Positions 5,365-58,564 of a stretch of DNA of 64,000 nt are shown piece by piece (position 1 is the first letter of the stretch; every line of letters begins with the position of its first letter). The stretch lies in contig MGCQ01000001.1 in assembly GCA_001790445.1 (NCBI GenBank), positions 187,157-251,156 of the forward strand, written 5' to 3'. Under the pieces are notes generated by a model. The model was not told the DNA's origin. It made no database searches and saw nothing but the letters and a program-made list of their open reading frames with translations. The translations under genes were made by a program, and so were the position numbers. The stretch comes from Candidatus Saccharibacteria bacterium RIFCSPHIGHO2_12_FULL_41_12. Lineage in GTDB: Bacteria > Patescibacteriota > Saccharimonadia > Saccharimonadales > 2-12-FULL-41-12.

Positions 5365-5435
5365 TTGTACCTCTCATATTTTTTAGTGGTTTTTTGTTTT
5401 TGTTATCGGCTAGACTGTTTTGGTCTTACCTACTG

Positions 5436-5474
5436 CTACCCACTTATTAGAGTTTACTACCCACCCATACCCAT
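5436..5474 (-). promoter_or_regulatory. Candidate MraZ operator: three direct (G/A)TGGGTA repeats upstream of mraZ
   Basis: The minus strand reads ATGGGTA (5474-5468), GTGGGTAG (5464-5457) and GTGGGTAG (5443-5436). Spacings are about 10-11 and 21 nt, and the boxes lie 72-110 nt upstream of the mraZ ATG. This resembles the known GTGGG-type MraZ boxes. Confidence 0.45.
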
Positions 5475-5626: not shown

Positions 5627-6016
5627 CCATTTCGATTAAAGCCCCTCAGACTTTTATCACCATACTTTCTTGTGCAAACAAGAAAGTATGCAAAGAAATA
5701 GCAGGCTATTGAAGTAACATGATTGAAATATCTATTCAGGGGCCTGAAACAAAGCAGTCTAAAGTCATAATTAATAATATTTCCAAAGGAAATATACAAG
5801 GGAAGCTTGGGTCAGGCCTTGAGCAGACCTGAGAGATTTCGTCGAGATTACAACTAACAGCTGAGGACTGTTTGAACGACCAAAGGGAGAGAGTTCCGGA
5901 AGCTGTTGTAATCCTCGACAAGAAATCACTTCAAGTCTGTTCAACAGCCTGTCGGTTTTTGGGTTCCGTTTTGCCGATTCAAAATGGAACAAAAGTAGGC
6001 TTGCTTGCAAGCCTAC
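5627..6016 (-). repeat. Family-1 composite structured intergenic element, copy A (short form)
   Basis: Modules present: outer hairpin 5627-5660; HP1 perfect 13-bp hairpin 5661-5690; core long helix arms 5841-5854 / 5905-5919; GC hairpin 5995-6016. The strand given is the one reading GC-hairpin -> core -> HP1. Confidence 0.8.
5981..6016 (-). terminator. Intrinsic terminator-like hairpin downstream of pyrF (this is the GC-hairpin module of family-1 copy A)
   Basis: Minus strand reads GUAGGCUUGCAAGCAAGCCUAC followed by UUUUGUUCCAUUUUG, 23 nt after the pyrF stop. Confidence 0.55.
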
Positions 6017-6039
6017 TATTAAGTGATTGGTGGACTCTA

Positions 6040-6834
6040 CTAACGATATTGGTTGATTTCGTCGCGGAGTGCTTTCGCTGCCTTGGCTGGGTCTTCTGAA
6101 AAAATAATACCTCTTGCAGAGTTGATCATCAGACCTTTGCCTGACTTATCAAGCCCAGATCTGACGGCATCACCAACATCACCGCCTTGCGCACCAACAC
6201 CAGGCACTAAAAACGTCACCCCTGGAGTAATCTCTCTTATACGTTTCATTTCCTCAGGATAAGTTGCCCCAACAACTAGCATACAATTGCTATTCTTGTT
6301 CCATTCGTTTGCTACTTTTTCGGCCACAATCTCCCAGATTGTCTGACCATCTACCACGAGATCTTGGAACTCACCTGCGCCACTGTTAGAAGTTCGACAC
6401 AGTATTATCGAAACCTTGTCTTTTCTATCCAAAAACGGCTTTAACGCTTCACTGCCTAAATATGGATGGAGGGTAATCGAATCAAAGCCAAGCCAATCAA
6501 AAATGAACTTCGCATAGCCATTGTTGGTATTGCCGATATCAGCTCTTTTGGCATCACAAGAAGTAAATATATCCGGATATTGTTCAATCAGAAAATCCAT
6601 GGTCATTTTTAGCTCATGGATTCCTTGCTCCCCCCGAGCTTCATAAAAAGCAATGTTAGGTTTAAAGGCGGCCGCATACTCAGCGGTTTGCTCTATAATC
6701 CATCTGTTAAATTCAAATTGCGGAAACTTTTTTTGTTTGAATTTTGTGGGTAATTTGTCAAAATCAGGATCAAGCCCTACACAAAGAAGCGAATTTATGG
6801 CGTCGACTCTTTGGTTATACTTATCAATTAACAT
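6040..6834 (-). CDS. pyrF: Orotidine 5'-phosphate decarboxylase (type 2)
   Basis: 264 aa with VGLDP and DAKRADIGNT motifs. Overlaps pyrE by 11 nt. Confidence 0.9.
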   Translation of the reverse strand: MLIDKYNQRVDAINSLLCVGLDPDFDKLPTKFKQKKFPQFEFNRWIIEQTAEYAAAFKPNIAFYEARGEQGIHELKMTMDFLIEQYPDIFTSCDAKRADIGNTNNGYAKFIFDWLGFDSITLHPYLGSEALKPFLDRKDKVSIILCRTSNSGAGEFQDLVVDGQTIWEIVAEKVANEWNKNSNCMLVVGATYPEEMKRIREITPGVTFLVPGVGAQGGDVGDAVRSGLDKSGKGLMINSARGIIFSEDPAKAAKALRDEINQYR

Positions 6835-7462
6835 TTTTCGCTTCCATGTATTTACGGCCGTGTCCTATCTGTTGATTAACTGGTATACTCTCTTTGCACA
6901 TGGGACAATTTGACTCTTCGTATACTTCAACTATAAACTCCCCTAGTGCATAAAAAGGTACTCCAAAATATTCAGATGTCACCTCTGATGGGTTACGATT
7001 AACCAATACAACGACACCGACGACTTCACCGCCAGCTAGCCTAACTGCGTCTAAGACACTTTTTGCGCTTCCTCCTGTAGAGGTGACGTCCTCGACAATT
7101 AAGACTTTTTTTCCATTTACAAATTTGTCATAGCCACGAGTAAAAATTTGGTCTTCATCCTTATTTTTTTCAGTGTAAACACCGTAAATCTCTTTGCCCC
7201 CTTGTTTCGATGCGTGCCAAGCGGTCCACTGCGACAAGATTATTCCGCCAAGAGCCGGACCAACAACTACGTCGTAGTCCAAATCTTGTGTCTTATCGAC
7301 GAAAGCAATGCAAGCCTGGGACGTCAAGTCTGTATGTGGGTACAAGGCATCTTTATTGATATATTTACTGGCGTGCTTGCCCGATTTTAGGACAAAATGA
7401 TCATCTATAATTACTCCACCTACTGATTCGAGCACCTTGATAATATCAAAACTCATAGTCAC
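6824..7462 (-). CDS. pyrE: Orotate phosphoribosyltransferase
   Basis: 212 aa with the PRPP-binding loop VLIVEDVTSTGGS. Adjacent to pyrF. Confidence 0.85.
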   Translation of the reverse strand: MTMSFDIIKVLESVGGVIIDDHFVLKSGKHASKYINKDALYPHTDLTSQACIAFVDKTQDLDYDVVVGPALGGIILSQWTAWHASKQGGKEIYGVYTEKNKDEDQIFTRGYDKFVNGKKVLIVEDVTSTGGSAKSVLDAVRLAGGEVVGVVVLVNRNPSEVTSEYFGVPFYALGEFIVEVYEESNCPMCKESIPVNQQIGHGRKYMEAKNVN

Positions 7463-7509
7463 CTCTTCTATTTACACAATATTTTACTACTGAAAGTAGA
7501 TTTTAGCAA

Positions 7510-8052
7510 TCAAAATGTGTGCTTGATAATATGGTCAACCCTATCTTCTACACTCATAACAGGGATTTTTTTGACATTCATGCCGTATTTTTTATATGCC
7601 TGTTCTGTAAGCCTATGTAATTCTTCTGCTTCTGCCTTATCTTCTATTCTTGCATAATCTGTCTGGTAGTAATCGTCTAGCATATCGAGCAACAACACCT
7701 TATCATAAATATATTTTCGAAGTATACTATCAATTTCTGTGGTCATGTCTATTCTGTCAGCTTTGAAATAAGCCCAAGCATCGTGCATACCCCTGTCGAC
7801 AAAGACAATTTTACTACTATCTAAACTATCGAACCATTGCACCTCATTTTGAATCTTTTTTTCGATAATTGCCATCTGGAATTGCAAATTATCGCCTCTT
7901 ATTTCGTCAATTGTCATTCCCTTTGATAAACCTTCGTCTATCACCTGTCGTGCAGCCTCGTGGACTACAGTATGCCCACGTCTTTGGAGTTCATCAATAA
8001 CAGCAGTTTTACCTGTACCAGGACCTCCAATTATAGCAATAACTCTACTCAT
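7510..8052 (-). CDS. P-loop ATPase/kinase (AAA_28, NadR-like)
   Basis: 180 aa with Walker A GGPGTGKT and a size and pattern typical of AAA_28 small kinases. Confidence 0.55.
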   Translation of the reverse strand: MSRVIAIIGGPGTGKTAVIDELQRRGHTVVHEAARQVIDEGLSKGMTIDEIRGDNLQFQMAIIEKKIQNEVQWFDSLDSSKIVFVDRGMHDAWAYFKADRIDMTTEIDSILRKYIYDKVLLLDMLDDYYQTDYARIEDKAEAEELHRLTEQAYKKYGMNVKKIPVMSVEDRVDHIIKHTF

Positions 8053-8123
8053 AATATTATTTATACCATATAATGAAAATTTACAGAATACTTATTATGT
8101 GTTATTATACTTAAATAATTATT

Positions 8124-8810
8124 ATGAGCTCGGGAAATATATCACCAGAAAGAAAACCTATCCTAATATCTGATATTGATGCATTTCTGATTGACCCAAG
8201 AGAAATAAATGCACATTGGCTCCCTGGTGAGCCAAGATATCTTGACCTACCTGCTGACGAAAGCGCGATGGCAGAAGTCTATGGCATGAATTTACATGAA
8301 TTTTATAGAAAAAAAGATAAGTTTTTGAACTCCAGTGAAGCGATCCTCATACCACCGATTAAAGATTCTCCAGAGGTATTAGGTCTAGTAGCCATTCGAT
8401 TCGAAATAATTTTTGCAAGTGCAAGAGTACCTAATGTACACGAAAGCACTCTTGCCTGGCTAGAAGAACACTATGGTAACGCTGTCGGTAACCTGCAAGA
8501 AGAATTGAAACTTTTTACAATCGGTAGCGAAAAAACACATTATCTAGATTCTAAAGAAGCTATTTACAGAGCCTTTGGTGCGGAAGCGATGGCAGACGAC
8601 AAAAGACAACACCACATAGAAGCAAGAAATGCCGGTGTATCAACAAGGATATACTATCAGGACTCTAGGCTCGGTGGTGAGTCAAGAAGCGGGGCGACGC
8701 CTGAAGGCTCACATCTAGCTACAAATTTTCAGGAAGTTAAAACAATAATTTTGCCCCCTGATTACTCAAACGGAGACGATACGCCAAAAGTCACGTCTGC
8801 AGATCTTTAA
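8124..8810 (+). CDS. Hypothetical protein (possible HAD/nucleotidase-like fold)
   Basis: 228-aa ORF with good coding look. SDIDAFL near the N-terminus weakly resembles HAD motif I. No firm family recognised. Confidence 0.4.
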   Translation: MSSGNISPERKPILISDIDAFLIDPREINAHWLPGEPRYLDLPADESAMAEVYGMNLHEFYRKKDKFLNSSEAILIPPIKDSPEVLGLVAIRFEIIFASARVPNVHESTLAWLEEHYGNAVGNLQEELKLFTIGSEKTHYLDSKEAIYRAFGAEAMADDKRQHHIEARNAGVSTRIYYQDSRLGGESRSGATPEGSHLATNFQEVKTIILPPDYSNGDDTPKVTSADL

Positions 8811-8823
8811 TTAATCTTGGGTT

Positions 8824-10086
8824 TTATTTCCCGAGCCAGTCAGCAAACCACTTAGCACTGGGGCGAATTGTTCGTTTCATGCCATGTTTTCTATCTACAG
8901 CTACAAGCCCAAATTTTGGCCACCAACCAAAGCCCCATTCAAAATTATCTAGTAAACTCCAGTGTAAGTAACCTCTCAAATCAACACCTTCACTGATAGC
9001 TCGCTCCATGGCGACTATATTCTCTTCTATCCACCACCGCCTGTATTCATCTCGGGCATCAGCCAGACCGGTTTCCGTGATAAAAATGGGCTTTTTATAA
9101 TGAGCCCAAGCTCGGGTAATAATTGGGTATAGCCCTTCTGGCTCCATGTACCAACCAAGATCACTGACCGGTTGATGTGGGTTTTTGATTTTACCAAGCC
9201 CTGTGTAATAATCCGCAAAATAATAGTTAAGACCTACAAAATCCATAGTTCGGCGCACTCTGTTTAAAAACCACCAATTCCAGACGTAGCGCATCACCTC
9301 TGTTGTTAGAATATCAAATACATTGTGTGGCCTTTTTGGCTGAATATTAGACGTATTTGGTGCAGCGCCAATACTAATATCTTTTCTTTGTTTTTTTATA
9401 ATTTTGTAAGCTCTTCTATGAGCCAGAACAAGATTATAATAAGTAATTCCAGCAGAAAGCATTTTGCCCTTTTTACCCGGAGGCCACTCCCCAAGTATAT
9501 AGCCAAACGACACATAGTTATTGGGCTCATTCAGAATTATTACATACTGAACATCGTCCAGCAATTCATCGGTGATTTTTTGGATAAATCTTTCAAAATA
9601 TTGTAAATTACTTCTTTTTTCAAATCCCTTTTTTTCTGCCAACCAGACAGGTAATGTCCAATGCCAAATATTGAGAAATGGCTCAATCTTTTGTCTGCGT
9701 AGTTCCTTAATATAATTTTTGTAATGTGCTATTGCCTCCTCGTTCCATTTGCCCTCTTCTGGTTCAATCCTCGACCACTCTACCGTAAAACGAAAAGCAT
9801 TAAGATTTAGTTTTTTGACTAAAGCAAAATCTTCTTTGTATCTGTTGTAATGGTCCACACCCGTGCCTGATATATAGTTGTCAGGATCTTCTGCCTCATC
9901 TTTAATCCGGTCCCATGCAGGCAACCAGCTTAGTCGTTGGTGTGCCGTACGAGCCAGTTCTTTGGCGTATTCGGCTTCCCAAATAGTCCATTGATTGTAT
10001 TGACCACCTTCAACTTGGTGAGATGCTGTTGAAGCGCCCCAAAAGAATGTCTTTGGAAAATTATTTAATCTGTTATCTTCAGTCAT
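8824..10086 (-). CDS. Glycoside hydrolase family 1 (beta-glucosidase-like)
   Basis: 420 aa with the acid/base motif LNEPN and the nucleophile motif ITETG. Confidence 0.88.
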   Translation of the reverse strand: MTEDNRLNNFPKTFFWGASTASHQVEGGQYNQWTIWEAEYAKELARTAHQRLSWLPAWDRIKDEAEDPDNYISGTGVDHYNRYKEDFALVKKLNLNAFRFTVEWSRIEPEEGKWNEEAIAHYKNYIKELRRQKIEPFLNIWHWTLPVWLAEKKGFEKRSNLQYFERFIQKITDELLDDVQYVIILNEPNNYVSFGYILGEWPPGKKGKMLSAGITYYNLVLAHRRAYKIIKKQRKDISIGAAPNTSNIQPKRPHNVFDILTTEVMRYVWNWWFLNRVRRTMDFVGLNYYFADYYTGLGKIKNPHQPVSDLGWYMEPEGLYPIITRAWAHYKKPIFITETGLADARDEYRRWWIEENIVAMERAISEGVDLRGYLHWSLLDNFEWGFGWWPKFGLVAVDRKHGMKRTIRPSAKWFADWLGK

Positions 10087-10171
10087 TTTTAACCATTTTT
10101 GTTTTATATTTCCTGTGGATATAGTATATTCTTACTCATAAAATAGCAAGTTTTGCTGTCATATTGTGTGT

Positions 10172-10177
10172 TATAAT
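10172..10177 (+). promoter_or_regulatory. -10 box TATAAT 6 nt upstream of the pyrB ATG (leaderless-type)
   Basis: Sequence is gtgtgTTATAATtttcatATG. No SD lies between the box and the ATG at 10184. Confidence 0.4.
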
Positions 10178-10183
10178 TTTCAT

Positions 10184-11107
10184 ATGCATGTGGTGTCCAT
10201 AGACCAGTTTGATAAAGATGCGCTGTTTGAATTATTTACTAAGACCGATCAGATTAAGGAAGCACTTACTAGCCCTTCAGGGAGAAAAAAGCTTGCTGGT
10301 AAACATCGCGATAAACAAATCTGCACACTGTTTTATGAACCGTCAACTCGTACCCGTCTTAGTTTTGAAACTGCCGGCTACAAATTGGGTTTTGGTGTAG
10401 TCAGTACAGAAAGCGCCGGACAATTCTCTTCCGCCAGCAAGGGTGAGACCATGGAAGACACTATGGGAGTACTCGATGGATATGGCTATAGCGCAGTTAT
10501 AATTCGTCATCCAGAGACGGGCATGATTGGGCGAGCTGCAAAAGTAGCAAAAACGCCAATTATTAACGCTGGTGACGGCGCTGGCGAACACCCCACACAG
10601 TCGCTACTCGATACCTACACAATTTACAGCAACTTTGGTCGTTTGGATAATTTAACAGTTACCATGGGCGGAGACCTTAAATATGGCCGTTGTCCGAGGT
10701 CTCTGGCTAAAGTTTTGGCAAAATTTGACGACAATCATATCAAGTTTGTCTCCACCAAGTCCTTGGCTATTGGGCAAGATATAAAAGATTTTTTGAAGCA
10801 AAACAACACCACATATGAAGAAACCTCTGATATAGAAAAGGGCGTTGCTGGTTCTGATGTGATTTATTGGACTAGGCTTCAAAAAGAACGACTAGATGAA
10901 AAAGATAAGGGTCTCGCACATGGGTTTATAATAGACAAAAATACCCTAAAGTTAATGAAAAAAGACGCAATTATTATGCACCCTCTGCCCCGTGTTGACG
11001 AAATAACCACCGATGTTGACGATGACCCTAGAGCCAAATACTTTGAGCAAGCAGGCAACGGACTTCTTATCCGCATGGCCTTGCTCGACACAATTGCTAC
11101 TGAATAA
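10184..11107 (+). CDS. pyrB: Aspartate carbamoyltransferase catalytic subunit
   Basis: STRTR, HPTQ and HPLPR motifs are present. The track ORF starts at GTG 10166, but that would contain the TATAAT box, so ATG 10184 (MHVVSIDQF...) is preferred. Confidence 0.88.
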   Translation: MHVVSIDQFDKDALFELFTKTDQIKEALTSPSGRKKLAGKHRDKQICTLFYEPSTRTRLSFETAGYKLGFGVVSTESAGQFSSASKGETMEDTMGVLDGYGYSAVIIRHPETGMIGRAAKVAKTPIINAGDGAGEHPTQSLLDTYTIYSNFGRLDNLTVTMGGDLKYGRCPRSLAKVLAKFDDNHIKFVSTKSLAIGQDIKDFLKQNNTTYEETSDIEKGVAGSDVIYWTRLQKERLDEKDKGLAHGFIIDKNTLKLMKKDAIIMHPLPRVDEITTDVDDDPRAKYFEQAGNGLLIRMALLDTIATE

Positions 11108-11125
11108 AGAAGTGAACTTCAAAAA

Positions 11126-11669
11126 CAACCTTTCGCCGGCACTAAAGTGCCTGATGCAACATACTTTCTTGTGTTGACAAGAAAGTATGCAAAGAAGCAA
11201 CAGGCGGTTGAACAAACTTGAAGTGATTTCTTGTCGAGGATTACAACAGCTTGCGGAACTCATCCCGCCACGGCGGGGCTCAGACAGTCCTCAGCTGATA
11301 GTTGTAATCTCGACGAAATCTCTCAGGTTTGCTCAAGGCCTGACCAACAATCTGTATATTTTCAAAGAAAATATTATTAATACTTTAGACTGCTTTTGGT
11401 CCCCTTTTAAAAACACCTTTGGATTATTCAATACCAAAACAGATTAATCTGAGGACTAGGCTTTATGCCCGACTGGAAGGAGTCCCGCAAGAGTAGTTTG
11501 TTTTGGTATTGAATAATTAAGGGTAATTGTTTTTAAACCGGGGTGGCACTTTTTGCTTACTTTTTCTTGCTATTGAGAAAAAGTAAGGTGATAAAAGCCT
11601 CTTTGGAGGCTTTAGCGCAATGCAGCTAACCCTTAGTCAAGAATTTTTTGACACAAAAATGGAACAAAG
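11126..11669 (+). repeat. Family-1 composite structured intergenic element, copy B (long, rearranged form)
   Basis: Modules present: outer hairpin 11138-11151; HP1 11160-11189; core arms 11233-11247 / 11301-11314; apical GC hairpin 11264-11277; stem 11423-11442 / 11497-11517 carrying the X module 11451-11488; HP2 11556-11587; outer hairpin 11594-11613; end piece 11650-11669. Confidence 0.8.
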
Positions 11670-11690
11670 ATTTGGTTCTTTGGAAAAGAA

Positions 11691-28504: not shown

Positions 28505-28544
28505 TACCCCCTAATTATACACTCATTTATATAGAATTTGACCA

Positions 28545-29022
28545 ACAACCTTCCGCCGACACCAAGGTGTCTGATGCGTCATACTTTCTTGTGTTGACAA
28601 GAAAGTATGCAAAGAAACAACAGGCTATTGAATAACATTATTGAAATATCTAAACAATTAACCCAGTTTCTGCGGGACTCCTTCCAGTCGGGCTAAAGCC
28701 TAGTCCTCAAAACATGGCGTTAATCGCTCAGATATTTCATCAGTTATTAAATGGCCTGAAATTTAGTTGCTAGATTATTAATAATATTTTCATAGAAAAT
28801 ATACACTCTGCTTCTGGTCAGGCCTTGAGCAGACCTGAGAGATTTCGTCGAGATTACAACTATTAGACGAGGACTGTCTGAATGACCAAAGGGAGAGAGT
28901 TCCGCAGTCTGTTGTAATCCTCGACTAGAAATCCCACCCGGGTCTGTTCAATCGCCTGTCGGTTTTGGGTTCCGTTTTGCCGAAACAAAATGGAACAAGA
29001 AATGGCTTGCTTGCAAGCCTGC
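28545..29022 (-). repeat. Family-1 composite structured intergenic element, copy C (long form with X module)
   Basis: Modules present: outer hairpin 28558-28571; HP1 28580-28609; X module 28672-28708; core arms 28847-28860 / 28911-28925; GC hairpin 29004-29019. Confidence 0.8.
28985..29022 (-). terminator. Intrinsic terminator-like hairpin downstream of the 29041-29697 gene (GC-hairpin module of copy C)
   Basis: Minus strand reads GGCUUGCAAGCAAGCC followed by AUUUCUUGUUCCAUUUUG, about 20 nt after the stop. Confidence 0.45.
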
Positions 29023-29040
29023 TAATTAGAAATTTCTTAT

Positions 29041-38509: not shown

Positions 38510-40093
38510 TTATTTCAAGGCTTTAATAAAACCGACAAACAATGGGTGTGGTCTGACTGGGCGAGATTTAAATTCTGGGTGAAACTGTGATGCCACATAA
38601 AAGGGGTGGTCTTTACCTTCTATAACCTCGACTAGATTACGCTGCAAATTGCGCCCAACTACGTTGATACCAGATTGTTCTAACACATCCATATAATCAT
38701 TGTTGCACTCATATCTGTGCCGATGTCTCTCGACAATATTTTCGACTTTGTATAGTTCGTAAACCTTCGATGATTTATCAAGTTTGCAGTCATAATTACC
38801 GAGACGCATAGTCCCGCCAGTATTTTCTTTACCGAGCTGATCAGGCATCGTATAAATAACTGGATTTTTAGTATCCGGATCAAATTCTACAGAATTAACG
38901 TCTTTTGTGACAAGTTGACGCCGTACCGCTGCAATAATAGCCACCTGAAGACCTAAGCATAACCCCAAATATGGTATATTTGCCCGAAAAGCATAATCTG
39001 CAGCAAAAATCTTGCCTTCTGCTCCTCTTTGCCCAAAACCACCTGGCACCAAAATACCATCATAATTTTTTAATTGATCTTCAGAATTTAACTTTTCGGA
39101 ATCAATCCAATCAACCTCCAGATCAATGTTATGCCACAACGCTGCAGCGCGAAGCGCCTCAAATACAGATATATATGTATCCTGATTATCTAAATATTTT
39201 GCAACGAAGGCAATGCTCCGTTTTGTACGGTTTTTGGTCAAAGCAAGATCTACCATCTTATGCCATTCTTTGTTTTCCGGTTTTTTGACTTTTAGACCAA
39301 GTCTATTGACAATGTAATCGCCAATTTTTGAGTCTTCCAAAGTTAGCGGGACTTGATAAATGCTCTTTGCGGTTGGCAGTACGACAATGGCTTCTTCTGG
39401 AACACCGCTAAACATACTCGTTTTAGTAACAATATCACGCCCTGGTTGACTCTCACATCTAATTGCCAAAATATCAGGCATAATACCAACTGCACGAAGG
39501 TCTCTAACGGCGTTTTGCGCTGGTTTAGTCTTGAATTCCCCAGAAGCTCCCAAATACGGCGCATAAACAACATGGACAAACAACGCACTGTCATGTCCTT
39601 GCTTGAACCCCAGTTCCCTTATCGCTTCGATAAACGCCGGACTTTCAAAATCTCCGACAGTTCCACCAATTTCTACAATATGCACATCCGAATTTTTACC
39701 AGCCTCTACAATTTTTTTCTGAATCAAATCTGTTAAGTGTGGAATTACTTGAACAGTTTTGCCCAAATAATCCCCGCCTCTTTCTTGTTCTATGAGCTCT
39801 TTAAGAACGCGACCACTCATTAAACTACTTTTTTGAGACATTTCCTCATCTAGAAATCTCTCATAATGCCCGAGGTCAAGATCTGTTTCTGCACCATCTG
39901 CTGTGACAAAACACTCGCCATGTTCTGCCGGATTGAGTGTACCTGCATCAAAATTGAGGTACGGGTCACATTTTTGAATACTAACTTTGAGCCCACGACT
40001 TTTTAGGATGTTTCCGATAGATGCGGCAGTGATGCCTTTGCCAAGCCCAGATAGTACGCCTCCTGAAACAAAAATAAACTTAGTCATAGCCAT
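38510..40093 (-). CDS. pyrG: CTP synthase
   Basis: 527 aa with GGVLSGLGKG and the GATase nucleophile GLCLGLQ. The real start may be the second ATG at 40087 (MTKFIFVSGG). Confidence 0.95.
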   Translation of the reverse strand: MAMTKFIFVSGGVLSGLGKGITAASIGNILKSRGLKVSIQKCDPYLNFDAGTLNPAEHGECFVTADGAETDLDLGHYERFLDEEMSQKSSLMSGRVLKELIEQERGGDYLGKTVQVIPHLTDLIQKKIVEAGKNSDVHIVEIGGTVGDFESPAFIEAIRELGFKQGHDSALFVHVVYAPYLGASGEFKTKPAQNAVRDLRAVGIMPDILAIRCESQPGRDIVTKTSMFSGVPEEAIVVLPTAKSIYQVPLTLEDSKIGDYIVNRLGLKVKKPENKEWHKMVDLALTKNRTKRSIAFVAKYLDNQDTYISVFEALRAAALWHNIDLEVDWIDSEKLNSEDQLKNYDGILVPGGFGQRGAEGKIFAADYAFRANIPYLGLCLGLQVAIIAAVRRQLVTKDVNSVEFDPDTKNPVIYTMPDQLGKENTGGTMRLGNYDCKLDKSSKVYELYKVENIVERHRHRYECNNDYMDVLEQSGINVVGRNLQRNLVEVIEGKDHPFYVASQFHPEFKSRPVRPHPLFVGFIKALK

Positions 40094-40096
40094 GAC

Positions 40097-40261
40097 CTAC
40101 ACACCACACCTTTCTGCCGACCAGCGAAGCTGCCCACTCCAAAGGTGTTCTTGGCGTAGAATCAATTTTTTATTTGTGATACTCACTCCGCCGTACCAAA
40201 TGTACGACTTGTTCCGTTTCTCAATAATAAAATTGATTCTACGTCCAAGTGTGTTGGTCAT
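40097..40261 (-). CDS. Small ORF (54 aa) inside family-2 structured element, stop 3 nt before the pyrG ATG
   Basis: Manual translation gives MTNTLGRRINFIIEKRNKSYIWYGGVSITNKKLILRQEHLWSGQLRWSAERCGV. It is a paralogue of the ORF at 50000-50173, sharing EK.NK.Y..YGGV...QE.LW...AERC. It is below the track's 60-aa cutoff, and its coding status is uncertain. Confidence 0.4.
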   Translation of the reverse strand: MTNTLGRRINFIIEKRNKSYIWYGGVSITNKKLILRQEHLWSGQLRWSAERCGV

Positions 40262-41650: not shown

Positions 41651-41823
41651 CTAAGGAGGAAGAGACCTTCCCAAGGTTTTCCCTCCGCCAATTCCCTAAT
41701 TGATAATACACACATCAATCATTACTTGCTCATTATTGATGTGTGCCCATGGAAAGGGAGGATCCCGAAGCTTTAGCTGAGGCTAAGGAGGCGAAAAACC
41801 TCTCTGGGTTTTCCCTCCTTAAG
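41651..41823 (-). repeat. Family-3 3'-flank structured element, copy F (downstream of the CHAP hydrolase gene)
   Basis: Three parts are present. The SD/anti-SD-like hairpin spans 41783-41823. The conserved ccatggaaagggaggatc occupies 41747-41764 on the plus strand. The hairpin 41709-41719 / 41735-41745 and a third hairpin at 41651-41687 complete the element. Confidence 0.65.
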
Positions 41824-41825
41824 GC

Positions 41826-42935
41826 TTAGAAGTGGATGAAGGCAAGCCCAGCAGGGCTAATATTATAACCTTCGGAATATGTTCCGTTATATGAGTAGTT
41901 ATAATCACTAACATTAATCGTGCCGTTAGGGTTAACACTTTCGACGTACATAGAGTGACCATAATAGCCAACATTCATAATTGCAATATCACCTGCACGT
42001 GGGGAACCATCTACGGGGATTCCTTCAGCGCGAGCGTTATCATCCCATTGGTTAGCATTGCCCCGTCCACCCCAATACGGCATATAGCCTCGAGTTTCAT
42101 AGACTTTCCAGGCGGTGTAACTAACACATTCACGGTTATACATACCCCAACTGTCCAACATAGAGTCTTGAGGAGAATTCCGCCAAATATTCGGATAGGT
42201 ATCACGACCATTTGATCCGGCAACAACTCTTGAGCCATTACCTTGAAAGAATTTGGCGTTTTCTGCAGCTTGCTGTGAGCGAAGCTGAGAGGCCTTTGCG
42301 CTATTGTCTTTGATCTGGGCATTTAGCGCGTCTTGCTGACCTTGGTTTAGCCCTAACAAACGATCATTTTCTGCGCGTTGAGCGACTATCTGATTTTGTA
42401 GAATTTGCTGTTCTGCAATAATTTTCTCTGTAGTTGCTTTTTGCGTGCTAAGATCTAGTTTAAGCTGTTGCACGCGATCAAGTGTGGCTTTTACTTTGTT
42501 CTGAACGCTTTCTTTATATTGCTGCTTGTCAAAGAATTCGCTTAAGTCTTTTGATGATGCCAACATCTCTAGCGTACTAACGTCCCCATCCAAATACATA
42601 CTTTTAATTATTCCGCCAAGTATAGTGCGCTGTTTGGCTAATTCTACCTCTGCTTTTGCTATCTCAATCTTTAGCTCTTCGATCTTTTTGCGATTGGCAT
42701 CAATTTTATTTTGCATAGCGTTAATATCGGCTTGGAGTTTCGATATAGTGTCTGCTAAAGAAGTGGCTTCCGCACCAAGTTGAGAATTCTGAGTTTGTTT
42801 GACAGAGGTGTCTTGGTTCAAAGCTCTAATCTGATCATCAAATCTATCCGCCCGCACCATTGGCACTATCAAAACAGCCACTACAAAACCCGTTACGGTA
42901 GTGGTATAAAGTGCTGTTTTGAGTTGTCTTCTCAT
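41826..42935 (-). CDS. Secreted coiled-coil plus CHAP-domain peptidoglycan hydrolase (PcsB-like)
   Basis: 369 aa with a signal/TM, about 200 aa of coiled coil, and a C-terminal CHAP domain with Cys (NRECVSYTAW) and His (YGHSMYVESV). Lies downstream of ftsEX. Confidence 0.8.
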   Translation of the reverse strand: MRRQLKTALYTTTVTGFVVAVLIVPMVRADRFDDQIRALNQDTSVKQTQNSQLGAEATSLADTISKLQADINAMQNKIDANRKKIEELKIEIAKAEVELAKQRTILGGIIKSMYLDGDVSTLEMLASSKDLSEFFDKQQYKESVQNKVKATLDRVQQLKLDLSTQKATTEKIIAEQQILQNQIVAQRAENDRLLGLNQGQQDALNAQIKDNSAKASQLRSQQAAENAKFFQGNGSRVVAGSNGRDTYPNIWRNSPQDSMLDSWGMYNRECVSYTAWKVYETRGYMPYWGGRGNANQWDDNARAEGIPVDGSPRAGDIAIMNVGYYGHSMYVESVNPNGTINVSDYNYSYNGTYSEGYNISPAGLAFIHF

Positions 42936-43125: not shown

Positions 43126-43600
43126 GCATTGCGATAAAACCTTACACGCTTTTTATCACCTTACTTTTTCTCAGTAGCAAGAAAAAGTAAGCAAAAAGTG
43201 CCACCCTTAGCTAAAAACAATCCATGAACTATTCAAACAACCTCTTAGCAGGCTTGCAGGCAAGCCATCTCTTGTTCCATTTTTGTGTCGACAAAAACGG
43301 AACCCAAAAAACGACAGGCTATGAACAGACTTGATGAGACTACCAGTCGATAGTTACAACAGCCTGCGGAACTCAGCCAGTAAACTGGCTTCAAACAGTC
43401 CTCGCCTTAGTAGTTGTAACATCGACGTAGTCTCTCGGGTCTGGTTCATGGCCTGAGAAGGCTTCCCTAGTATATTTCCTTAGGAAATATTATTAATCAT
43501 GACTTTAGACTGCTATTGGTCAGGCTGTTGTTTGTTTGTATACTTTCTTGTCAACACAAGAAAGTATGGTGATTAAATCCTTGAGCTTTAAGTGCAATGG
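43126..43600 (+). repeat. Family-1 composite structured intergenic element, copy D (both hairpin ends present, most divergent core)
   Basis: Modules present: left end with HP2 43160-43191; GC hairpin 43251-43266; core arms 43346-43360 / 43413-43426; apical hairpin 43375-43390; HP1 43540-43567; right end to 43600. Confidence 0.8.
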
Positions 43601-45511: not shown

Positions 45512-46264
45512 TTGGCTGTGAGGATATATGACAACAAGCTTAACACCGTGGAAGAACGTGTATTGAATGAGTCTGCCCTTAGGGATAATTCTTACCCTGG
45601 CAGAGGAATAATTATGGGGATTAATAGTAGTGGCACACATTTTGTGCAGGTCTATTGGTTGATGGGAAGAAGTGAAAATTCACGAAATCGTATTTTTGTG
45701 GTTGAAAATAATACATTGAGAACTAGAGCTTATGACCCAAGCAAAGTTGAAGACCCCAGCTTGATCATCTATGACGCTATGGTCGAGATCGACAATATGC
45801 ATATCGTCAGTAACGGCGACCAGACATCTACCATTGCAAATTTGTTGGATCAAGGAAAAACATTCGAGGAAGCCCTGACGGCTAGAACTTATGAACCCGA
45901 TGCGCCGCACTTTACGCCAAGAATTTCTGGAGTTTATGCTACATGTGGAACTGCCAAACTATCTATAATTCGGAAAAATAATGAGAAAACTGACCACAAA
46001 ACCTTTAATATTGATCTACAAAACACCGTACCCGGAGAAGGATTTTGTCTCCATACATACAAATCAGATGGCAATCCCTTGCCATCCTTTGACGGAGACC
46101 CCCTAGTTGTTGGTCTGCTTGAATCCGCAGAGGAGACAGCAAATAAATTCTGGGGTTTGCTTAATGAAGATAATCGGATAAGCATCGGGGTAAAGTTTAT
46201 TCCTCTCGATGGCGGAGACCCAGAATTTAACATTATTAACAAGAACGGAGACAGACAGAAGTGA
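45512..46264 (+). CDS. purO: IMP cyclohydrolase, archaeal PurO-like
   Basis: 250 aa. YPGRGIIMG...GRSENSRNR and YEPDAPHFTPRISGV match my recollection of the PurO signatures (Y.GR...G, SRSFPNR, YE.D..TPRIAGV). TTG start has the SD AAGGA. The stop overlaps the next gene (GTGA). Confidence 0.6.
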   Translation: MAVRIYDNKLNTVEERVLNESALRDNSYPGRGIIMGINSSGTHFVQVYWLMGRSENSRNRIFVVENNTLRTRAYDPSKVEDPSLIIYDAMVEIDNMHIVSNGDQTSTIANLLDQGKTFEEALTARTYEPDAPHFTPRISGVYATCGTAKLSIIRKNNEKTDHKTFNIDLQNTVPGEGFCLHTYKSDGNPLPSFDGDPLVVGLLESAEETANKFWGLLNEDNRISIGVKFIPLDGGDPEFNIINKNGDRQK

Positions 46265-47304
46265 GCCAAAAATTATCAGAAATAGACATAACATATGGCG
46301 AAAACCCCCAGCAAAAATGCTACGGCATTGATATGGCGACTGGAGTCGCAAATGACCCACTCGCCATCGGTAATTTTGAGCTAACTCAGGGTGCAAATCC
46401 AAGTTTTTGTAATATAACAGATTTGGACAGAATGCTCCAAACAATCACTCACATCGCTGCTGTGTATTTTCTAAACACAGGCAAAACTCCACTGATTGCT
46501 ATCGGTGCAAAACACGGTAATGCCTGTGGTGTTAGTGTTAGCGAGAACTGGGAGCAAGCCGTTCATAACATGCTAAATGGTGATCTGCGGGCTATTTTTG
46601 GCGGATCGATAATGGTCAGCTTCCCCGTTGATGGCGAAATAGCTAACGAGCTAGTCACTTATAATTCAAAGTTTGGCAAAAGACTGCTGGATATGGTGGT
46701 GGCTCCGTTTTTTACTCCAGAAGCTCTAGAAGTTCTGCAAAGGAAAAATGGAAAACTCCGTCTTTTTGCTAACCCGGCGCTAGCTACATTGGATAAAAAT
46801 TCTCTTGACTGCCAAAAAAGAGACCGATACCTGCGTGGTGGACATATCACTCAGGATAATTACACAAATATTTTTGATTTTAAATCTCCCGCAGTAACCA
46901 AAAATGCTATCGAGATGTCTGAGGGGCAAAAGAGCTCACTCATGCTTGCTTGGGCAATCGCTGTGACCAGTAACAGCAACACAATTACATTGGTCAAAGA
47001 CAATATGCTTATCGGCAACGGCGTAGGACAGCAAGACCGAGTTTCTGCCGCAGAACTTGGCGTCAAAAGAGCTAGCGCCGCCGGACATGACACCAATGGA
47101 TCAGTGGCTTTTGGTGATAGTTTCTTCCCGTTCACGGACGGCCCAGAGGTCTTGGCAAAAGCTGGCGTTAGTGCAATACTCACCACTAATGGCTCCGTCA
47201 AAGACGCCGAAGTTGCGAAGTCTCTAACAGATAGAAATGTTGTCTTCTGGACTGTACCTGACAATGCTGGCTCCGACTCCGGGCGTGGCTTCTACGCCCA
47301 CTAA
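46261..47304 (+). CDS. purH: AICAR transformylase domain only (PurH C-terminal half, no MGS-like IMPCH domain)
   Basis: 347 aa with YGENPQQK, AKHGNACGV and GDSFFPFTDG motifs of the AICARFT domain. The length matches the transformylase half alone. Confidence 0.8.
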   Translation: MSQKLSEIDITYGENPQQKCYGIDMATGVANDPLAIGNFELTQGANPSFCNITDLDRMLQTITHIAAVYFLNTGKTPLIAIGAKHGNACGVSVSENWEQAVHNMLNGDLRAIFGGSIMVSFPVDGEIANELVTYNSKFGKRLLDMVVAPFFTPEALEVLQRKNGKLRLFANPALATLDKNSLDCQKRDRYLRGGHITQDNYTNIFDFKSPAVTKNAIEMSEGQKSSLMLAWAIAVTSNSNTITLVKDNMLIGNGVGQQDRVSAAELGVKRASAAGHDTNGSVAFGDSFFPFTDGPEVLAKAGVSAILTTNGSVKDAEVAKSLTDRNVVFWTVPDNAGSDSGRGFYAH

Positions 47305-47309
47305 GAAAC

Positions 47310-47421
47310 CTTAAGGAGGGGAAACCCAAAAAGGTTTTTCGCCTCCTTAGACTACGCTATCGCTCCGTGATCCTCCCTTTCCATAGTTAATAATTCTGAT
47401 GAGTAAATAATCAGAATTATT
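47310..47421 (+). repeat. Family-3 3'-flank structured element, copy G (downstream of purH)
   Basis: The SD/anti-SD-like hairpin spans 47310-47350 (cttaaggaggggaaaccc-aaaaa-ggtttttcgcctccttag). The conserved gatcctccctttccat occupies 47369-47384. The hairpin 47389-47400 / 47410-47421 follows. Confidence 0.65.
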
Positions 47422-47610
47422 GTGTTTAATTACTACTATAGGGTGTGGTTGATGTAGGCGATACAATTTTGAACAAGAATAATCAAATCGTCGTGACCAA
47501 ACATAAACTATACTCTAATAATTTACACGATCGTTTAAATTATTAGAATTGCTATTTTGATTAGATTACTGTGTTTTGTCTGGCAAGACTATTGAGTAAA
47601 GTCTGACTTA

Positions 47611-49996: not shown

Positions 49997-49999
49997 AAC

Positions 50000-50173
50000 C
50001 TATGCAACACACCTTTCTGCTAACTGGCAAAGCCAGCAATTCCAAAGGTATTCTTGACCAAAAACAGCTTTTTCTTTTGCGAGATTCACTCCACCGTACT
50101 TCAGGTACGGCTTGTTCCATTTCTCAAAGAGAAAAGCTGTTTTTAACTCAAGTGCAAAGGTTATGATTTTCAT
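50000..50173 (-). CDS. Small ORF (57 aa) inside family-2 structured element, overlapping the secA stop (TAATG) and ending 3 nt before the M16 start
   Basis: Manual translation gives MKIITFALELKTAFLFEKWNKPYLKYGGVNLAKEKAVFGQEYLWNCWLCQLAERCVA. It is a paralogue of 40097-40261 and below the track cutoff. Its coding status is uncertain. Confidence 0.45.
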   Translation of the reverse strand: MKIITFALELKTAFLFEKWNKPYLKYGGVNLAKEKAVFGQEYLWNCWLCQLAERCVA

Positions 50174-53480: not shown

Positions 53481-54557
53481 CTAAGCGCGCACCAATAGAA
53501 GTTCTTGCTTGGGTAACGGATAATATCTTTCTGTCGGTTTGAAACTACCTCCTTGTTTGAAATAGCCATCAACATCAGTCATTATTTGGTTTGCAATCGC
53601 TTCTGCAAATTTTACAGGAACTGCGTTACCTATCATTTTGTAACCATCTGAAATATTTGTGTATACGAATTGAAAATCATCTGGAAATGTCTGGATTCTA
53701 GCGCATTCACGAACACTCAATCGCCTATAAAGTGATTCTTTCCCTTTCACAAAAATCTGTTTATTTTCACCAACCTTCATCATCTTTGGCGCATCTGGGT
53801 GTATTGGTGCATGTCTACCACCTGCTTGTATAGTGAAGGATGGTTCATCCCAGGATCTAACTCTATTGCGCGACATGTATATTGTAGAGAAACCACCATT
53901 CATATACTCATGGTTAGGAGTTTCCAATTTATTTCCATGGGTCTTATTTTTATCTTTTGCAGGTTCTGCTGTTTTTCTCAAATCCCAGATGGAATCTTTT
54001 AAATTCTTTTTGTTCTCATCAACAATCGATTCGGGAAAACTAAACTTCTTGCCAAGTTTTTTATCATAGCCAATAAAAAATACTCTCTTCCTATCTTCAG
54101 GGACACCGTAATCATACGCATTTAAGAGCTTATATGTGAAGTGATACCCAAGTTTTTCAAATTCTTCAATAATGAAATCTAAAGAATCTTTGTGCCTGAC
54201 AGAAAGCATACCAGAAACATTTTCGGCGAGAAAAAAAAGTGGTTTCTTGTCTCTTATTACTCGTATATATTCGAGGAATATTTGTCCTCTTCTGTCTCCA
54301 AGACCTCTGCCCGCCCCAGCTTCACTCCAACTTTGACAAGGTGGACCGCCAATTATTCCAATAGCGTTAGGTATTTGAGCAGATGGGATGATTCCTAAAT
54401 TTCTGTCATCTACCTCTGTTTCTGGGAAGTTTAAACGAAGTGTAGGTGTAATTGTTTCATCAAACTCGTTAGCCCATTTTAGGTGAAAGCCCGCATTATG
54501 AAAGCCAAGGTCAAGACCTCCTGCACCACTAAATAGAGATACGAGGTCAAACTTCAT
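53481..54557 (-). CDS. DNA (cytosine-5)-methyltransferase, M.HaeIII-like (probable GGCC specificity)
   Basis: 358 aa with motifs FSGAGG, PPCQSWS, ENV and GNAVP. The variable region (DKNKTHGNK..PNHEY..STIYMSRNRVRSWDEPSFTIQAGGR) closely resembles my recollection of the M.HaeIII target-recognition domain. Confidence 0.85.
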   Translation of the reverse strand: MKFDLVSLFSGAGGLDLGFHNAGFHLKWANEFDETITPTLRLNFPETEVDDRNLGIIPSAQIPNAIGIIGGPPCQSWSEAGAGRGLGDRRGQIFLEYIRVIRDKKPLFFLAENVSGMLSVRHKDSLDFIIEEFEKLGYHFTYKLLNAYDYGVPEDRKRVFFIGYDKKLGKKFSFPESIVDENKKNLKDSIWDLRKTAEPAKDKNKTHGNKLETPNHEYMNGGFSTIYMSRNRVRSWDEPSFTIQAGGRHAPIHPDAPKMMKVGENKQIFVKGKESLYRRLSVRECARIQTFPDDFQFVYTNISDGYKMIGNAVPVKFAEAIANQIMTDVDGYFKQGGSFKPTERYYPLPKQELLLVRA

Positions 54558-55428
54558 AGCTGATAATCCTTGCTTCTATTAATTTTACCGGGTTATTTGG
54601 ATCTGATATCTGAACTTTGTTCATGATCATTTTATCATCAAGCTGTGCTTCAAATTTTAATCTTGACTCTTCTGGGAAAGAAAGATATTTACTGTCAAGA
54701 AGAAGGCAATACGCGCGAAACATAGCATCTTTTCTAGACTTAGGAATAATATCTTCGAATACTACAGCCGGATTTTTGACAATCCACATACCTCTTACTC
54801 GTAGACGAGTAATACCTAATGGATCTATCTTTGGCACCACGGCTAATTCATTAGTGTCAGAAAGTTCGGTTTTATCAAAACTTTGAGATATAGCACCGGT
54901 AATTCTTTGCGCCGCTTTTTCGTAAACACCATGTTCAGCGGCAAAACAATCACCATAGATAAACCAGAGTCTTGTGAGCAACTTATCCTTTCCGACAGAA
55001 CCTACGGCATAAAATATATCCTTTTGAGTCCAGTTTTCCTTAAGAGCAAGTTCTCTGCACGTTTTATTGATTCTCGTGTCTGAAGCCAGAAGGCACGCTT
55101 TTGGTGGGGAGCTATTCAACTGAATACTCGCTGTTAATGAATCAACTTTTTTTACTTCAATTGCATCTCCATTTTTCAAGATCATATCTGGAGGGTTATT
55201 TGAATTTCCTGCATATGCGAAAACCTTAAAATGTGCCTTCTTTTTCACAGCTTTACTCTTTATTTTCAAAGTGTCTGAGAACAAATCTTTGATATAATCT
55301 TCTAGGCCTGATCCTATTTTTTGTATGCTATTGCCACTGACTCCGTCAGATACAGATAATTCTACATTTTCTTTGAGAAAAATAAGAGCATTCAGGATAT
55401 TATTTTTTGATATGTTTCTTTTACCCAT
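54547..55428 (-). CDS. Type II restriction endonuclease (partner of the m5C methyltransferase)
   Basis: 293-aa ORF directly upstream of the methyltransferase, overlapping it by 11 nt. SD GAGAGGG. No general family motif recognised, so the call rests on context. Confidence 0.6.
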   Translation of the reverse strand: MGKRNISKNNILNALIFLKENVELSVSDGVSGNSIQKIGSGLEDYIKDLFSDTLKIKSKAVKKKAHFKVFAYAGNSNNPPDMILKNGDAIEVKKVDSLTASIQLNSSPPKACLLASDTRINKTCRELALKENWTQKDIFYAVGSVGKDKLLTRLWFIYGDCFAAEHGVYEKAAQRITGAISQSFDKTELSDTNELAVVPKIDPLGITRLRVRGMWIVKNPAVVFEDIIPKSRKDAMFRAYCLLLDSKYLSFPEESRLKFEAQLDDKMIMNKVQISDPNNPVKLIEARIISYEV

Positions 55429-57999: not shown

Positions 58000-58075
58000 A
58001 CAGGTCAAAAGCCTCAACAGTTAGATTTACTTACCTCCTCCTAACGGGCTTACACACATATGGAAATCTTGTGTC

Positions 58076-58547
58076 GGCTTGCAAGCAAGCCTGATTTTGT
58101 TCCATTTTGAATCGACAAAACGGAACCCAAAAACCGACAGGCGGTTGAGCAGACTTGATGGGATTTCTTGTCGAGGATTACAACAGACTGTGGAACTCTC
58201 TCCCTTTGGTCGTTCAAACAGTCCTCGTCTGATAGTTGTAATCTCGACGAAATCTCTCAGGTCTGCTCAAGGCCTGACTAACAATCTGTATATTTTCTTA
58301 GAAAATATTATTAATAATCTAGCCGCTTAAGCTCCAGGCCCTTGGATAACTGATGAAATATTTCTTCAAGCAACACCATGTTTTGAGGACCAGGCTTTAG
58401 CCCGACCATAGGGAGTCCCGCAAAAACTGGGTTGATTGAAGAGATATTTCAATAATGTTACTTCAATAGCCTGCTATTTCTTTGCATACTTTCTTGTTAG
58501 TACAAGAAAGTATGGTGATTAAAGCCTGGGAGGGTTTAAGCGCAATG
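58076..58547 (+). repeat. Family-1 composite structured intergenic element, copy E (long form with X module)
   Basis: Modules present: GC hairpin 58076-58091; core helix 58146-58270 with arms 58170-58184 / 58235-58248; AT hairpin 58291-58310; X module 58385-58421; HP1 58485-58514; outer hairpin 58521-58537. Confidence 0.8.
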
Positions 58548-58564
58548 AAGCTGTTGCGGATAAA

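Follow-up and report, generated by a model that had tools for sequence, protein, structure and literature searches.

The 64-kb stretch of DNA analyzed here (the window) comes from an uncultivated Saccharimonadales genome and contains, in the spacers between its genes, five copies of a hairpin-rich repeat of about half a kilobase, designated family 1. The question raised by this locus is whether such a repeat represents a structured RNA gene present in several copies or a piece of DNA that has been copied from place to place; the original prediction had left both answers standing. As described below, family 1 is probably a mobile DNA repeat of 0.4-0.55 kb that is restricted to one lineage, codes for no protein and does not move autonomously, of the same kind as miniature inverted-repeat transposable elements (MITEs), paired repetitive extragenic palindromes (REPs) that form hairpins (REPINs) and bacterial interspersed mosaic elements (BIMEs). 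The mobile half of the prediction has held, on the evidence of insertions at all three sites compared, a non-coding sequence, inverted arms, a mosaic build and breaks in assemblies, whereas the RNA half has lost ground to strand-symmetric covariation, equal folding of both strands, the lack of a consistent promoter and the absence of the repeat from close relatives.

A BLASTN search of the five large intergenic regions against the whole window recovered exactly the five predicted loci (c1 to c5; Table 1), each holding a copy of 390-550 bp, with 73-90% identity among the copies; no other significant self-match of family 1 was obtained in the window, where only two unrelated small repeat families were found. 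With c5 taken as the reference, identity is 89-90% for c1, 86% across 443 nt for c3, 76-81% for c4 and 74% across 444 nt for c2. The 23-base core pattern ACAGTCCTC N6-8 TAGTTGTAA NN TCGAC is present in five of five copies and had no match in 100 shuffles, and a pattern for the hairpin module matched five modules in the window and none in shuffles. The footprint of the family is ~2.4 kb, or 3.7% of the window, which corresponds to positions 91263-155262 of the 164,824-bp scaffold ANAN16-1_SAMN03842435 scaffold_103, derived, to judge from the sample names, from the Rifle aquifer. Upstream of rpsB, ~10 kb past the right end of the window, lies a sixth copy, consisting of module X and an HP2 head (see below), at which the 165-kb scaffold terminates; window and flanks thus hold 6 copies in ~84 kb, roughly one per 14 kb. 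Contigs, like this scaffold, end within family 1, and Logan contigs from the same sample start or stop inside HP1 or HP2. A metagenome scan added two copies from other groundwater metagenomes, which have unrelated genes as neighbors. One of them, L001 (Hainich groundwater well H41), is a member of the c4 subfamily, with 89% identity to c4, and is located upstream of an open reading frame (ORF) that by eye resembles a DEAD-box helicase; the other, L002 (Ga0155608_12), is 95% identical to c5 and lies ~13 nt behind the stop codon of a 409-aa ORF.

The genes flanking the copies in the window are of the housekeeping type (mraZ, pyrF, pyrB, a DNA-alkylation-repair gene, ftsX, a CHAP hydrolase gene, rsmE and a PD-(D/E)XK nuclease gene), the closest homologues of RsmE and RsmH being found in Saccharimonadales/Patescibacteria metagenome-assembled genomes, which bears out the Patescibacteria affiliation assumed in the original prediction. 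As had been noted before, the copies occur in both orientations relative to these genes: c1 and c3 are co-directional with their neighbors, c4 and c5 are antisense, and c2 is placed between convergent genes. The six copies of window and flanks are divided three to three in direction, although the GC skew is uniform and all belong to a single replichore.

Evidence for mobility comes from the state of the same sites in relatives. Three of the five sites in the window could be compared with syntenic relatives, and at all three (RsmE/PD-(D/E)XK, pyrB/alkylation-repair and pyrF/mraZ) the element is missing from the relatives. At the c5 site, the stop codon of the RsmE gene is separated from the start of the PD-(D/E)XK gene by ~20 nt in L006 and L007, whose RsmE proteins are 74% and 73% identical to that of the window, whereas 579 bp lie between the two genes in the window; the motif TGA-CCTGTTATAAT is conserved, and the window retains TGACCTGTTATAAT beside the nuclease gene. 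At the c2 site, the convergent stop codons of pyrB and the alkylation-repair gene are 2 nt apart (TAG-AT-CTA) in four Hainich relatives (L013, L014, L016 and L017), as against 584 bp in the window, and the Hainich relative compared here is a 765,891-bp contig with an RsmH 80% identical to that of the window. At the c1 site, the spacer between pyrF and mraZ measures 274 bp (L018) and 264 bp (L028), compared with 676 bp in the window, where the conserved upstream region of mraZ begins directly after c1. No copy of family 1 was found in any relative locus by BLAST or with nhmmer profiles. Insertions are tolerated in short spacers just past stop codons.

Several features around these sites are recorded as observations in their own right. 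The ~70 nt between c5 and the PD-(D/E)XK gene (58005-58075) are foreign to the repeat family as well as to the empty site found in relatives; they contain GGAGGAGG and a hairpin, ACACA..TGTGT. What looked like a decayed copy of the end of the RsmE gene beside c5 matches no better than shuffles do. In the empty pyrF-mraZ site of L018 (1197-1225), exactly where the end of c1 would fall, the sequence AAAGTAACCTGAGTGTTTTAAGGCAATCG resembles the terminal small hairpin of the element together with GCAATG; by profile the likeness has no significance, and L028 does not show it. A footprint or relic of the element, a target motif and chance are all conceivable sources of this sequence. In L014 (8322-8942), as in L013, L016 and L017, an unrelated ORF of 206-213 aa without a Pfam family occupies the pyrF-mraZ spacer. 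L018 and L028 lack this ORF, which makes the spacer a hotspot of insertion and deletion in the clade. Finally, repeated GTGGGTAG boxes upstream of mraZ (~5420-5470, minus strand) are conserved in the window, L018 and L028, and are presumably MraZ operator repeats.

In the orientation of c5, the modules of the element follow one another in the order A1, A2, B, C with TATTAATA, X (optional) and D, the last comprising a linker, HP1 or HP2, GGTGAT, a small hairpin and GCAATG. All the modules listed in the original prediction are present, among them the GC hairpin GGCTTGC..GCAAGCC (followed by a T-rich tail) and the GTTCC...GGAAC hairpin, although the rod, given there as ~125 nt, is ~140 nt long. 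The stem of A1 consists of six pairs, all invariant in the five copies carrying it. Rod B has 45 pairs in the consensus structure, eight of them with changes on both sides, and a tip that varies from 8 to 28 nt in length and bears an extra 60-nt hairpin in L002. Hairpin C has eight pairs, of which two show compensatory changes. Module X is found in c2, c3 and c5, is half-deleted in c1 and is absent from c4. HP1 and HP2 are perfect hairpins of 12-13 bp with a GGTGAT flank and a small hairpin, and carry a variant tail in c3 and at the left end of c2.

Table 1. Copies of family 1 in the window and modules of copy c5.
Feature	Position	Strand	Composition and setting	Basis
Copy c1	5627..6018	-	A-B-C-(X 3' half only)-D(HP1); between pyrF and mraZ, co-directional with both; A1 29 nt past the pyrF stop	BLASTN
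Copy c2	11124..11671	+	Inverted HP1 head (variant tail), B, C, X, HP2 head, inverted A2 fragment (11644-11671); between convergent pyrB and DNA-alkylation-repair gene	BLASTN
Copy c3	28544..29025	-	A-B-C-X-D (HP1, variant tail); flanked by two co-directional genes of unknown function; A1 21 nt past the upstream stop	BLASTN
Copy c4	43126..43600	+	Inverted HP2 head, spacer, A, B, C, D(HP1), X absent; between ftsX and CHAP-domain hydrolase gene, antisense to both	BLASTN
Copy c5	58073..58552			BLASTN
c5 A1	58076..58101	+	GC hairpin GGCTTGCAAGCAAGCC and T-rich tail; resembles an intrinsic terminator in the A-to-D direction	Terminator scan
c5 A2	58099..58126	+	Hairpin GTTCCATTTTG...CAAAACGGAAC; heads the left arm; counterpart of right-arm HP1 when the profile is matched in reverse complement	Sequence and fold
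c5 B	58138..58276	+	Imperfect rod hairpin of ~140 nt; apical motifs CTGyGGAACTC and ACAGTCCTC invariant, tip variable	Fold
c5 C	58290..58315	+	Central AT palindrome ATATTTTC-TTA-GAAAATAT, then TATTAATA; symmetry center of the element	
c5 X	58353..58451	+	Second rod hairpin, inverted paralogue of rod B; conserved tip GAGGACCAGGCTTTAGCCCGAC...GGAGTCCCGC at 58385-58421	Fold and profile match
c5 D	58457..58552	+	Head of the right arm: linker GTTACTTCAATAGCCTGCTATTTC, perfect 13-bp HP1 (58485-58514), GGTGAT, small hairpin AAAGCCT..AGGGTTT, terminal GCGCAATG	Alignment of nine D modules and profile search

These modules are not a mere series. A profile of A-B-C matches the half formed by X and HP1 in reverse complement and in collinear order, with E = 1.8e-8 in c3 and 1.6e-3 in c5, and the element is therefore composed of two inverted arms of ~215 nt about the central palindrome C. 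In this match A2 corresponds to HP1, the linker CCAAAAACCGACAGGCGGTTGAA to CAAAGAAACAACAGGCTATTGAA, rod to rod and CTGCGGAACTC to CTGCGGGACTC, with AGTCCTC and GGCCTGA common to both arms; the alignments of both arms reach hairpin C and stop there. Read from its outer end, each arm begins with a small GC hairpin (A1 or the terminal part of D), continues with an AT-rich hairpin whose pairing is perfect or nearly so (A2, HP1 or HP2) and, after a linker (CAAAGAA..CAGGC..TTGAA), ends in a long imperfect rod (B or X), the rods sharing a conserved apical motif (CTGCGGrACTC ... AGTCCTC) with a variable tip. The canonical element is thus an old inverted duplication, whose two arms meet at an AT palindrome. 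Arm heads can substitute for one another, and the right-hand rod can be dispensed with. The two-arm build accounts for the mosaics observed: c2 is nearly symmetric, with an HP1-type head on the left arm and an HP2-type head on the right, c4 has an extra truncated arm head and no X, c1 lacks half of X, and L002 carries the 60-nt tip hairpin. Inverted HP heads stand at both ends of c2 and c4, and the extreme termini of the canonical element match, by eye, at only ~10 of 14 bases.

The folding of the element bears directly on the alternative that family 1 is a multi-copy structured non-coding RNA gene, whether regulatory, scaffold or guide RNA, the DNA copies being merely its genes. Copy c5 is predicted to fold very stably, at -174.3 kcal/mol on each strand (z = -8.2 and -10.2 relative to shuffles), and the covariation called for by the original prediction is indeed significant in rod B and hairpin C. 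Across the 59-pair consensus structure of A-B-C in seven copies, examined with 500 shuffles and slid-register controls, 96.5% of the cells are paired, and 10 of the 59 pairs have changes on both sides, a count reached by 1 of the 500 shuffles; the covariation score is 0.151 versus 0.078, none of the shuffles reaching 0.151, and double changes are lacking in the slid registers. Also in favor of a structured RNA are motifs, unpaired or apical, that do not vary, tips that vary but form small hairpins of their own, and the 60-nt insertion of L002, which resembles an expansion segment of an RNA. The signal, however, has no strand preference: there are 10 G·U cells and 8 A·C/C·A cells, non-standard cells amount to 14 and 16 on the two strands, c5 folds equally well on either strand, and the better-folding strand alternates among the copies. 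This strand-symmetric pattern fits a DNA palindrome, be it through symmetric double-stranded sites, hairpins on either strand or correction within the palindrome, and not an RNA gene read from one strand. Moreover, several of the double changes are shared by c4 and L001, which occupy different loci, and therefore arose in a source element rather than in situ.

Signals for transcription lead in the same direction. The terminator scan calls A1 in c1, c3, c4 and c5, always in the A-to-D direction, so that the sole clear terminator would stand at the 5' end of an A-to-D transcript, and no sigma-70-like promoter recurs at a fixed place in the copies. In the co-directional copies, A1 follows the upstream stop codon not only at the distances given for c1 and c3 but also at ~13 nt in L002, and its hairpin and T-run probably serve as the intrinsic terminator of the upstream gene. 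At the tip of rod B (58181-58213 in c5 and the equivalent positions elsewhere), c5, c1, c3 and c4 share GGAACT-N16/17-TCAAAC or TCAGAC, and the form GGAACT-N16-TCAAAC resembles the consensus of promoters for sigma-E of the extracytoplasmic function (ECF) class, a resemblance that is not relied on here. An ECF-sigma promoter at this place was rejected, the spacing ranging among the copies from 8 nt (L001) through 19 nt (c2) to 28 nt (L002), and the likeness is probably a coincidence. Together with the two-armed palindromic build, the random orientation with respect to genes and GC skew, the empty sites in relatives and the negative Rfam searches given below, these observations make a structured RNA gene quite unlikely as the explanation of family 1. 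Family 1 has no conserved coding capacity, its only long ORF being broken in four of seven copies and having no homologue among 5.8 billion proteins. The spurious 84-aa ORF of the element, used as bait in protein databases for copies in other metagenomes, gave no match.

Database searches agree with the original prediction, in which no known Rfam family was recognized in the repeat. None of the families of Rfam 15, which include HEARO, group II intron, 6S, OLE, ROOL, GOLLD and ribozymes, reached its gathering threshold anywhere in the window. Relaxing the limit to E = 10 brought up, for c5 and c2, nothing but microRNA-like hairpins matched by chance, and L001 and L002 had no match at E up to 0.1; the window also contains no tRNA. 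No match was obtained by BLASTN against phage and plasmid collections. The core pattern of rod B had 0 matches in 185,579 GTDB species genomes (one per species) and 0 in the IMG/VR viral contigs, in which the patterns for X and A also had none; the HP pattern had six matches in GTDB and two in viral contigs, all of which were dismissed as chance, with no hairpin or similar flanks. The distribution of family 1 is therefore narrow. In the searchable literature, no report of such repeats in Saccharibacteria or the candidate phyla radiation (CPR) was found. Integron attC sites, retrons, group II introns, 6S RNA, type I toxin-antitoxin systems and TIGR arrays were considered and rejected for want of a matching motif, partner gene or Rfam hit.

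If family 1 is mobile DNA, as we favor, a transposase or recombinase encoded elsewhere in the genome, outside the ~84 kb read, would have spread the copies in trans. Such an enzyme would probably recognize the hairpin-bearing ends of the arms, whether these act as symmetric sites in double-stranded DNA or as hairpins extruded from single strands, and recognition of this kind would explain why both halves of the hairpins co-evolve, and do so equally on both strands. The enzyme could be of the DDE type; one variant of this reading instead assigns the mobilization to a single-strand enzyme of the HUH (histidine-hydrophobic-histidine) class with one catalytic tyrosine (Y1), in which a protein resembling RAYT (REP-associated tyrosine transposase) or TnpA recognizes the HP hairpins and rods as single-stranded DNA, in the manner of REPINs or IS200/IS605 insertion sequences. 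Ends defined by hairpins instead of flat terminal repeats, stems perfectly conserved next to variable loops, rods that, like REPINs, keep their arms and vary at the tip, the conserved GGTGAT at the foot of the hairpin and the lack of a detected target duplication would all suit this variant. On the other hand, the palindromes are perfect and devoid of the asymmetric bulges used for strand choice, the element is ten times the size of a REP, and no Y1 gene lies within the ~84 kb examined; furthermore, the ends are inverted, not direct, and the copies facing both ways in one replichore reveal no lagging-strand bias, which argues against a strand-specific mechanism like that of IS200/IS605. We regard the single-strand variant as rather unlikely.

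Several observations weigh against mobility in general and have to be set beside those in its favor. The gene scan, made with Pfam on ~50 ORFs of the window, with NCBIfam on 10 unknowns and with precomputed Pfam annotation for the rest and the flanks, revealed only housekeeping genes and no transposase, recombinase, reverse transcriptase, TnpB or IscB in the window or among the Pfam-annotated genes of the ~10-kb flanks, nor any TnpA or IS110 gene in window and flanks; the mobilizing enzyme is therefore hypothetical. No insertion polymorphism was seen within the species, all sites being filled among the assemblies (the c3, c4 and c5 sites and the dcw region). No exact flanking direct repeat of at least 7 bp occurs at any copy in the search for target-site duplications. 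The two ends of the element are strongly diverged and do not form clean terminal inverted repeats, and the apparent TA flanks and a 14-nt terminal similarity, TTAGCnGnnTTGC, were seen by eye only. The copies are just 73-90% alike, and mobility may therefore be ancient. Lastly, the invariant apical motifs and the hairpin-shaped tips and insertions of rod B would fit an RNA too.

Some of these points might be taken to mean that the copies are inert remnants, neither mobile nor functional today, which arose either as segmental duplications or as the decayed ends of what was once a larger insertion sequence or prophage. Their limited likeness indicates that they are not recent, deletions and rearrangements have affected c1, c4 and c2, the pairing in the middle of the rod is lost in L002, and neither polymorphism among assemblies nor a nearby enzyme is at hand; at the c3 site, the 537-bp gap is identical in every contig that spans it, from several Rifle-aquifer samples and assemblies. 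Plain decay, however, would not be expected to leave nearly all cells of the consensus paired through compensatory changes. In addition, the subfamilies c5/L002 (95%) and c4/L001 (89%) are located at different loci, and copying therefore continued after the family had diverged. Inert remnants are thus very doubtful. A further idea, which we consider highly improbable, is that family 1 is the non-autonomous form of an undescribed type of Saccharimonadales/CPR transposon, whose enzyme would recognize multi-hairpin arms of 215 nt; in its most exotic version, transcription of each arm would yield a structured RNA comparable to a guide or bridge RNA, in which the variable tips of the rods would have some specifying role. 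It is relevant to this idea that the apical motifs do not differ even from one diverged arm to the other, that the tips are hypervariable and that no known family matches. A non-autonomous mobile repeat of a known kind accordingly remains the explanation that we prefer.

The genomes of CPR bacteria (Patescibacteria) are regarded as streamlined and poor in repeats. Here, a selfish repeat of 0.5 kb occupies the share of the window given above and splits gene pairs that abut in relatives, and it also explains the fragmented assemblies of this lineage, in which contigs and the 165-kb scaffold end inside the element. Family 1 is a ready marker for strain tracking, and the partner enzyme, if found, would point to an active transposition system in a phylum for which genetic tools are scarce. 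Palindromic intergenic mobile repeats are well known in many bacteria, and as an object of this class family 1 is ordinary; it is notable mainly for its high density in a supposedly streamlined CPR genome and for the fragmentation of assemblies.

Other features were noticed in the window besides family 1. A second repeat family has two members of ~140 nt on the minus strand (40095-40232 and 49998-50135), 73% identical, which immediately precede the start codons of pyrG (CTP synthase) and of a gene for an M16 peptidase; their conserved core, GAGAAAyGGAACAAGyCGTAC...GTACGGyGGAGTGA, is enclosed by an outer stem that is wholly different in sequence yet pairs in each case, and is followed by a second hairpin. 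It has no Rfam match at E up to 1 and could be a cis-regulatory leader RNA. The third repeat, of 87 nt with 84% identity, is found in mutually inverted orientation at gene 3' ends (41749-41835 and 47298-47384) and contains a GC-rich hairpin, AAGGAGGCGAAAAACC...GGGTTTyCCCTCCTT, with the look of a terminator. An isolated, perfect AT-rich palindrome of 34 nt (CTCTAATAATTTA...TAAATTATTAGA) is located in the spacer between the convergent purH and prfA genes (47514-47547). Among the genes, a heliorhodopsin gene (PF18761; 60525-61511, minus strand) is conserved in L007, and a gene pair for an NgoPII-type restriction endonuclease and a cytosine-5 DNA methyltransferase is annotated by Pfam at 53481-55428 (minus strand). 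Genes of nucleotide biosynthesis at 6040-11107, 38510-40093 and 45512-47304 comprise pyrB, a phosphoribosyltransferase gene (probably pyrE), pyrF, pyrG, an IMP cyclohydrolase-like gene and purH, a set exceeding what is usually ascribed to Saccharibacteria.

The properties of family 1 are worth comparing with those of the palindromic repeats described in other bacteria. The bacterial MITEs, such as the Correia elements or Neisseria miniature insertion sequences (NEMIS) and the repeat unit of pneumococcus (RUP) of Streptococcus pneumoniae, are, like family 1, short, non-coding, intergenic and dispersed in both orientations; they have two inverted ends with little or nothing between, show insertion polymorphism between related genomes and can supply terminators or promoters to neighboring genes, as Correia elements do. 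In its size (below ~600 bp), non-coding nature, dispersed copies and presence or absence among relatives, family 1 is like a MITE. It is, however, three to five times larger than Correia/NEMIS and RUP, and its ends are strongly diverged arms of ~215 nt with three hairpins each, whereas MITEs have clean terminal repeats of 20-40 bp; no target duplication of at least 7 bp was detected for family 1, no parent insertion sequence is known for it, and its sequence resembles nothing in the collections searched. The REP, REPIN and BIME repeats of Enterobacteria and Pseudomonas, which are associated with RAYT, also consist of inverted palindromic pairs, which fold into long hairpins whose arms are conserved and whose tip varies; as in family 1, the units of BIMEs combine as mosaics, and REPs and REPINs show compensatory evolution of hairpins and an intergenic placement just past genes. 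REPs are, however, imperfect palindromes of 20-40 nt with a conserved 5' tetranucleotide, present in hundreds of copies, whereas the units of family 1 measure ~215 nt and have perfect head hairpins; it is only in the layout of the rods that family 1 is REPIN-like, its palindromes are not those of a REP, and the window and flanks contain no RAYT.

The BOX element of Streptococcus pneumoniae and the enterobacterial repetitive intergenic consensus (ERIC) or intergenic repeat unit (IRU) share with family 1 a modular build with optional or repeated middle modules, a strong predicted structure and an intergenic location. BOX is a linear boxA-boxB(n)-boxC array in contrast to the two-armed palindrome of family 1, ERIC measures ~127 bp as against 390-550 bp, and neither is related to it in sequence. 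Palindrome-associated transposable elements (PATEs) of the IS200/IS605 type and the genes for the omega-RNA of TnpB/IscB and the bridge RNA of IS110 are comparable in their hairpin-bearing ends, in 150-300 nt of structured non-coding sequence per arm and in the existence of orphan copies without the protein gene. In these systems, the left and right hairpins are direct, a strand bias exists and a guide segment is adjacent, whereas the ends of family 1 are inverted, and neither direct subterminal hairpins nor one-strand insertion relative to replication, which characterize PATEs of the IS200/IS605 type, is observed in it. Altogether, the sequence of family 1 is new, its kind, that of palindromic intergenic mobile repeats, is already known, and what is unusual about it is its size and its multi-hairpin arms.

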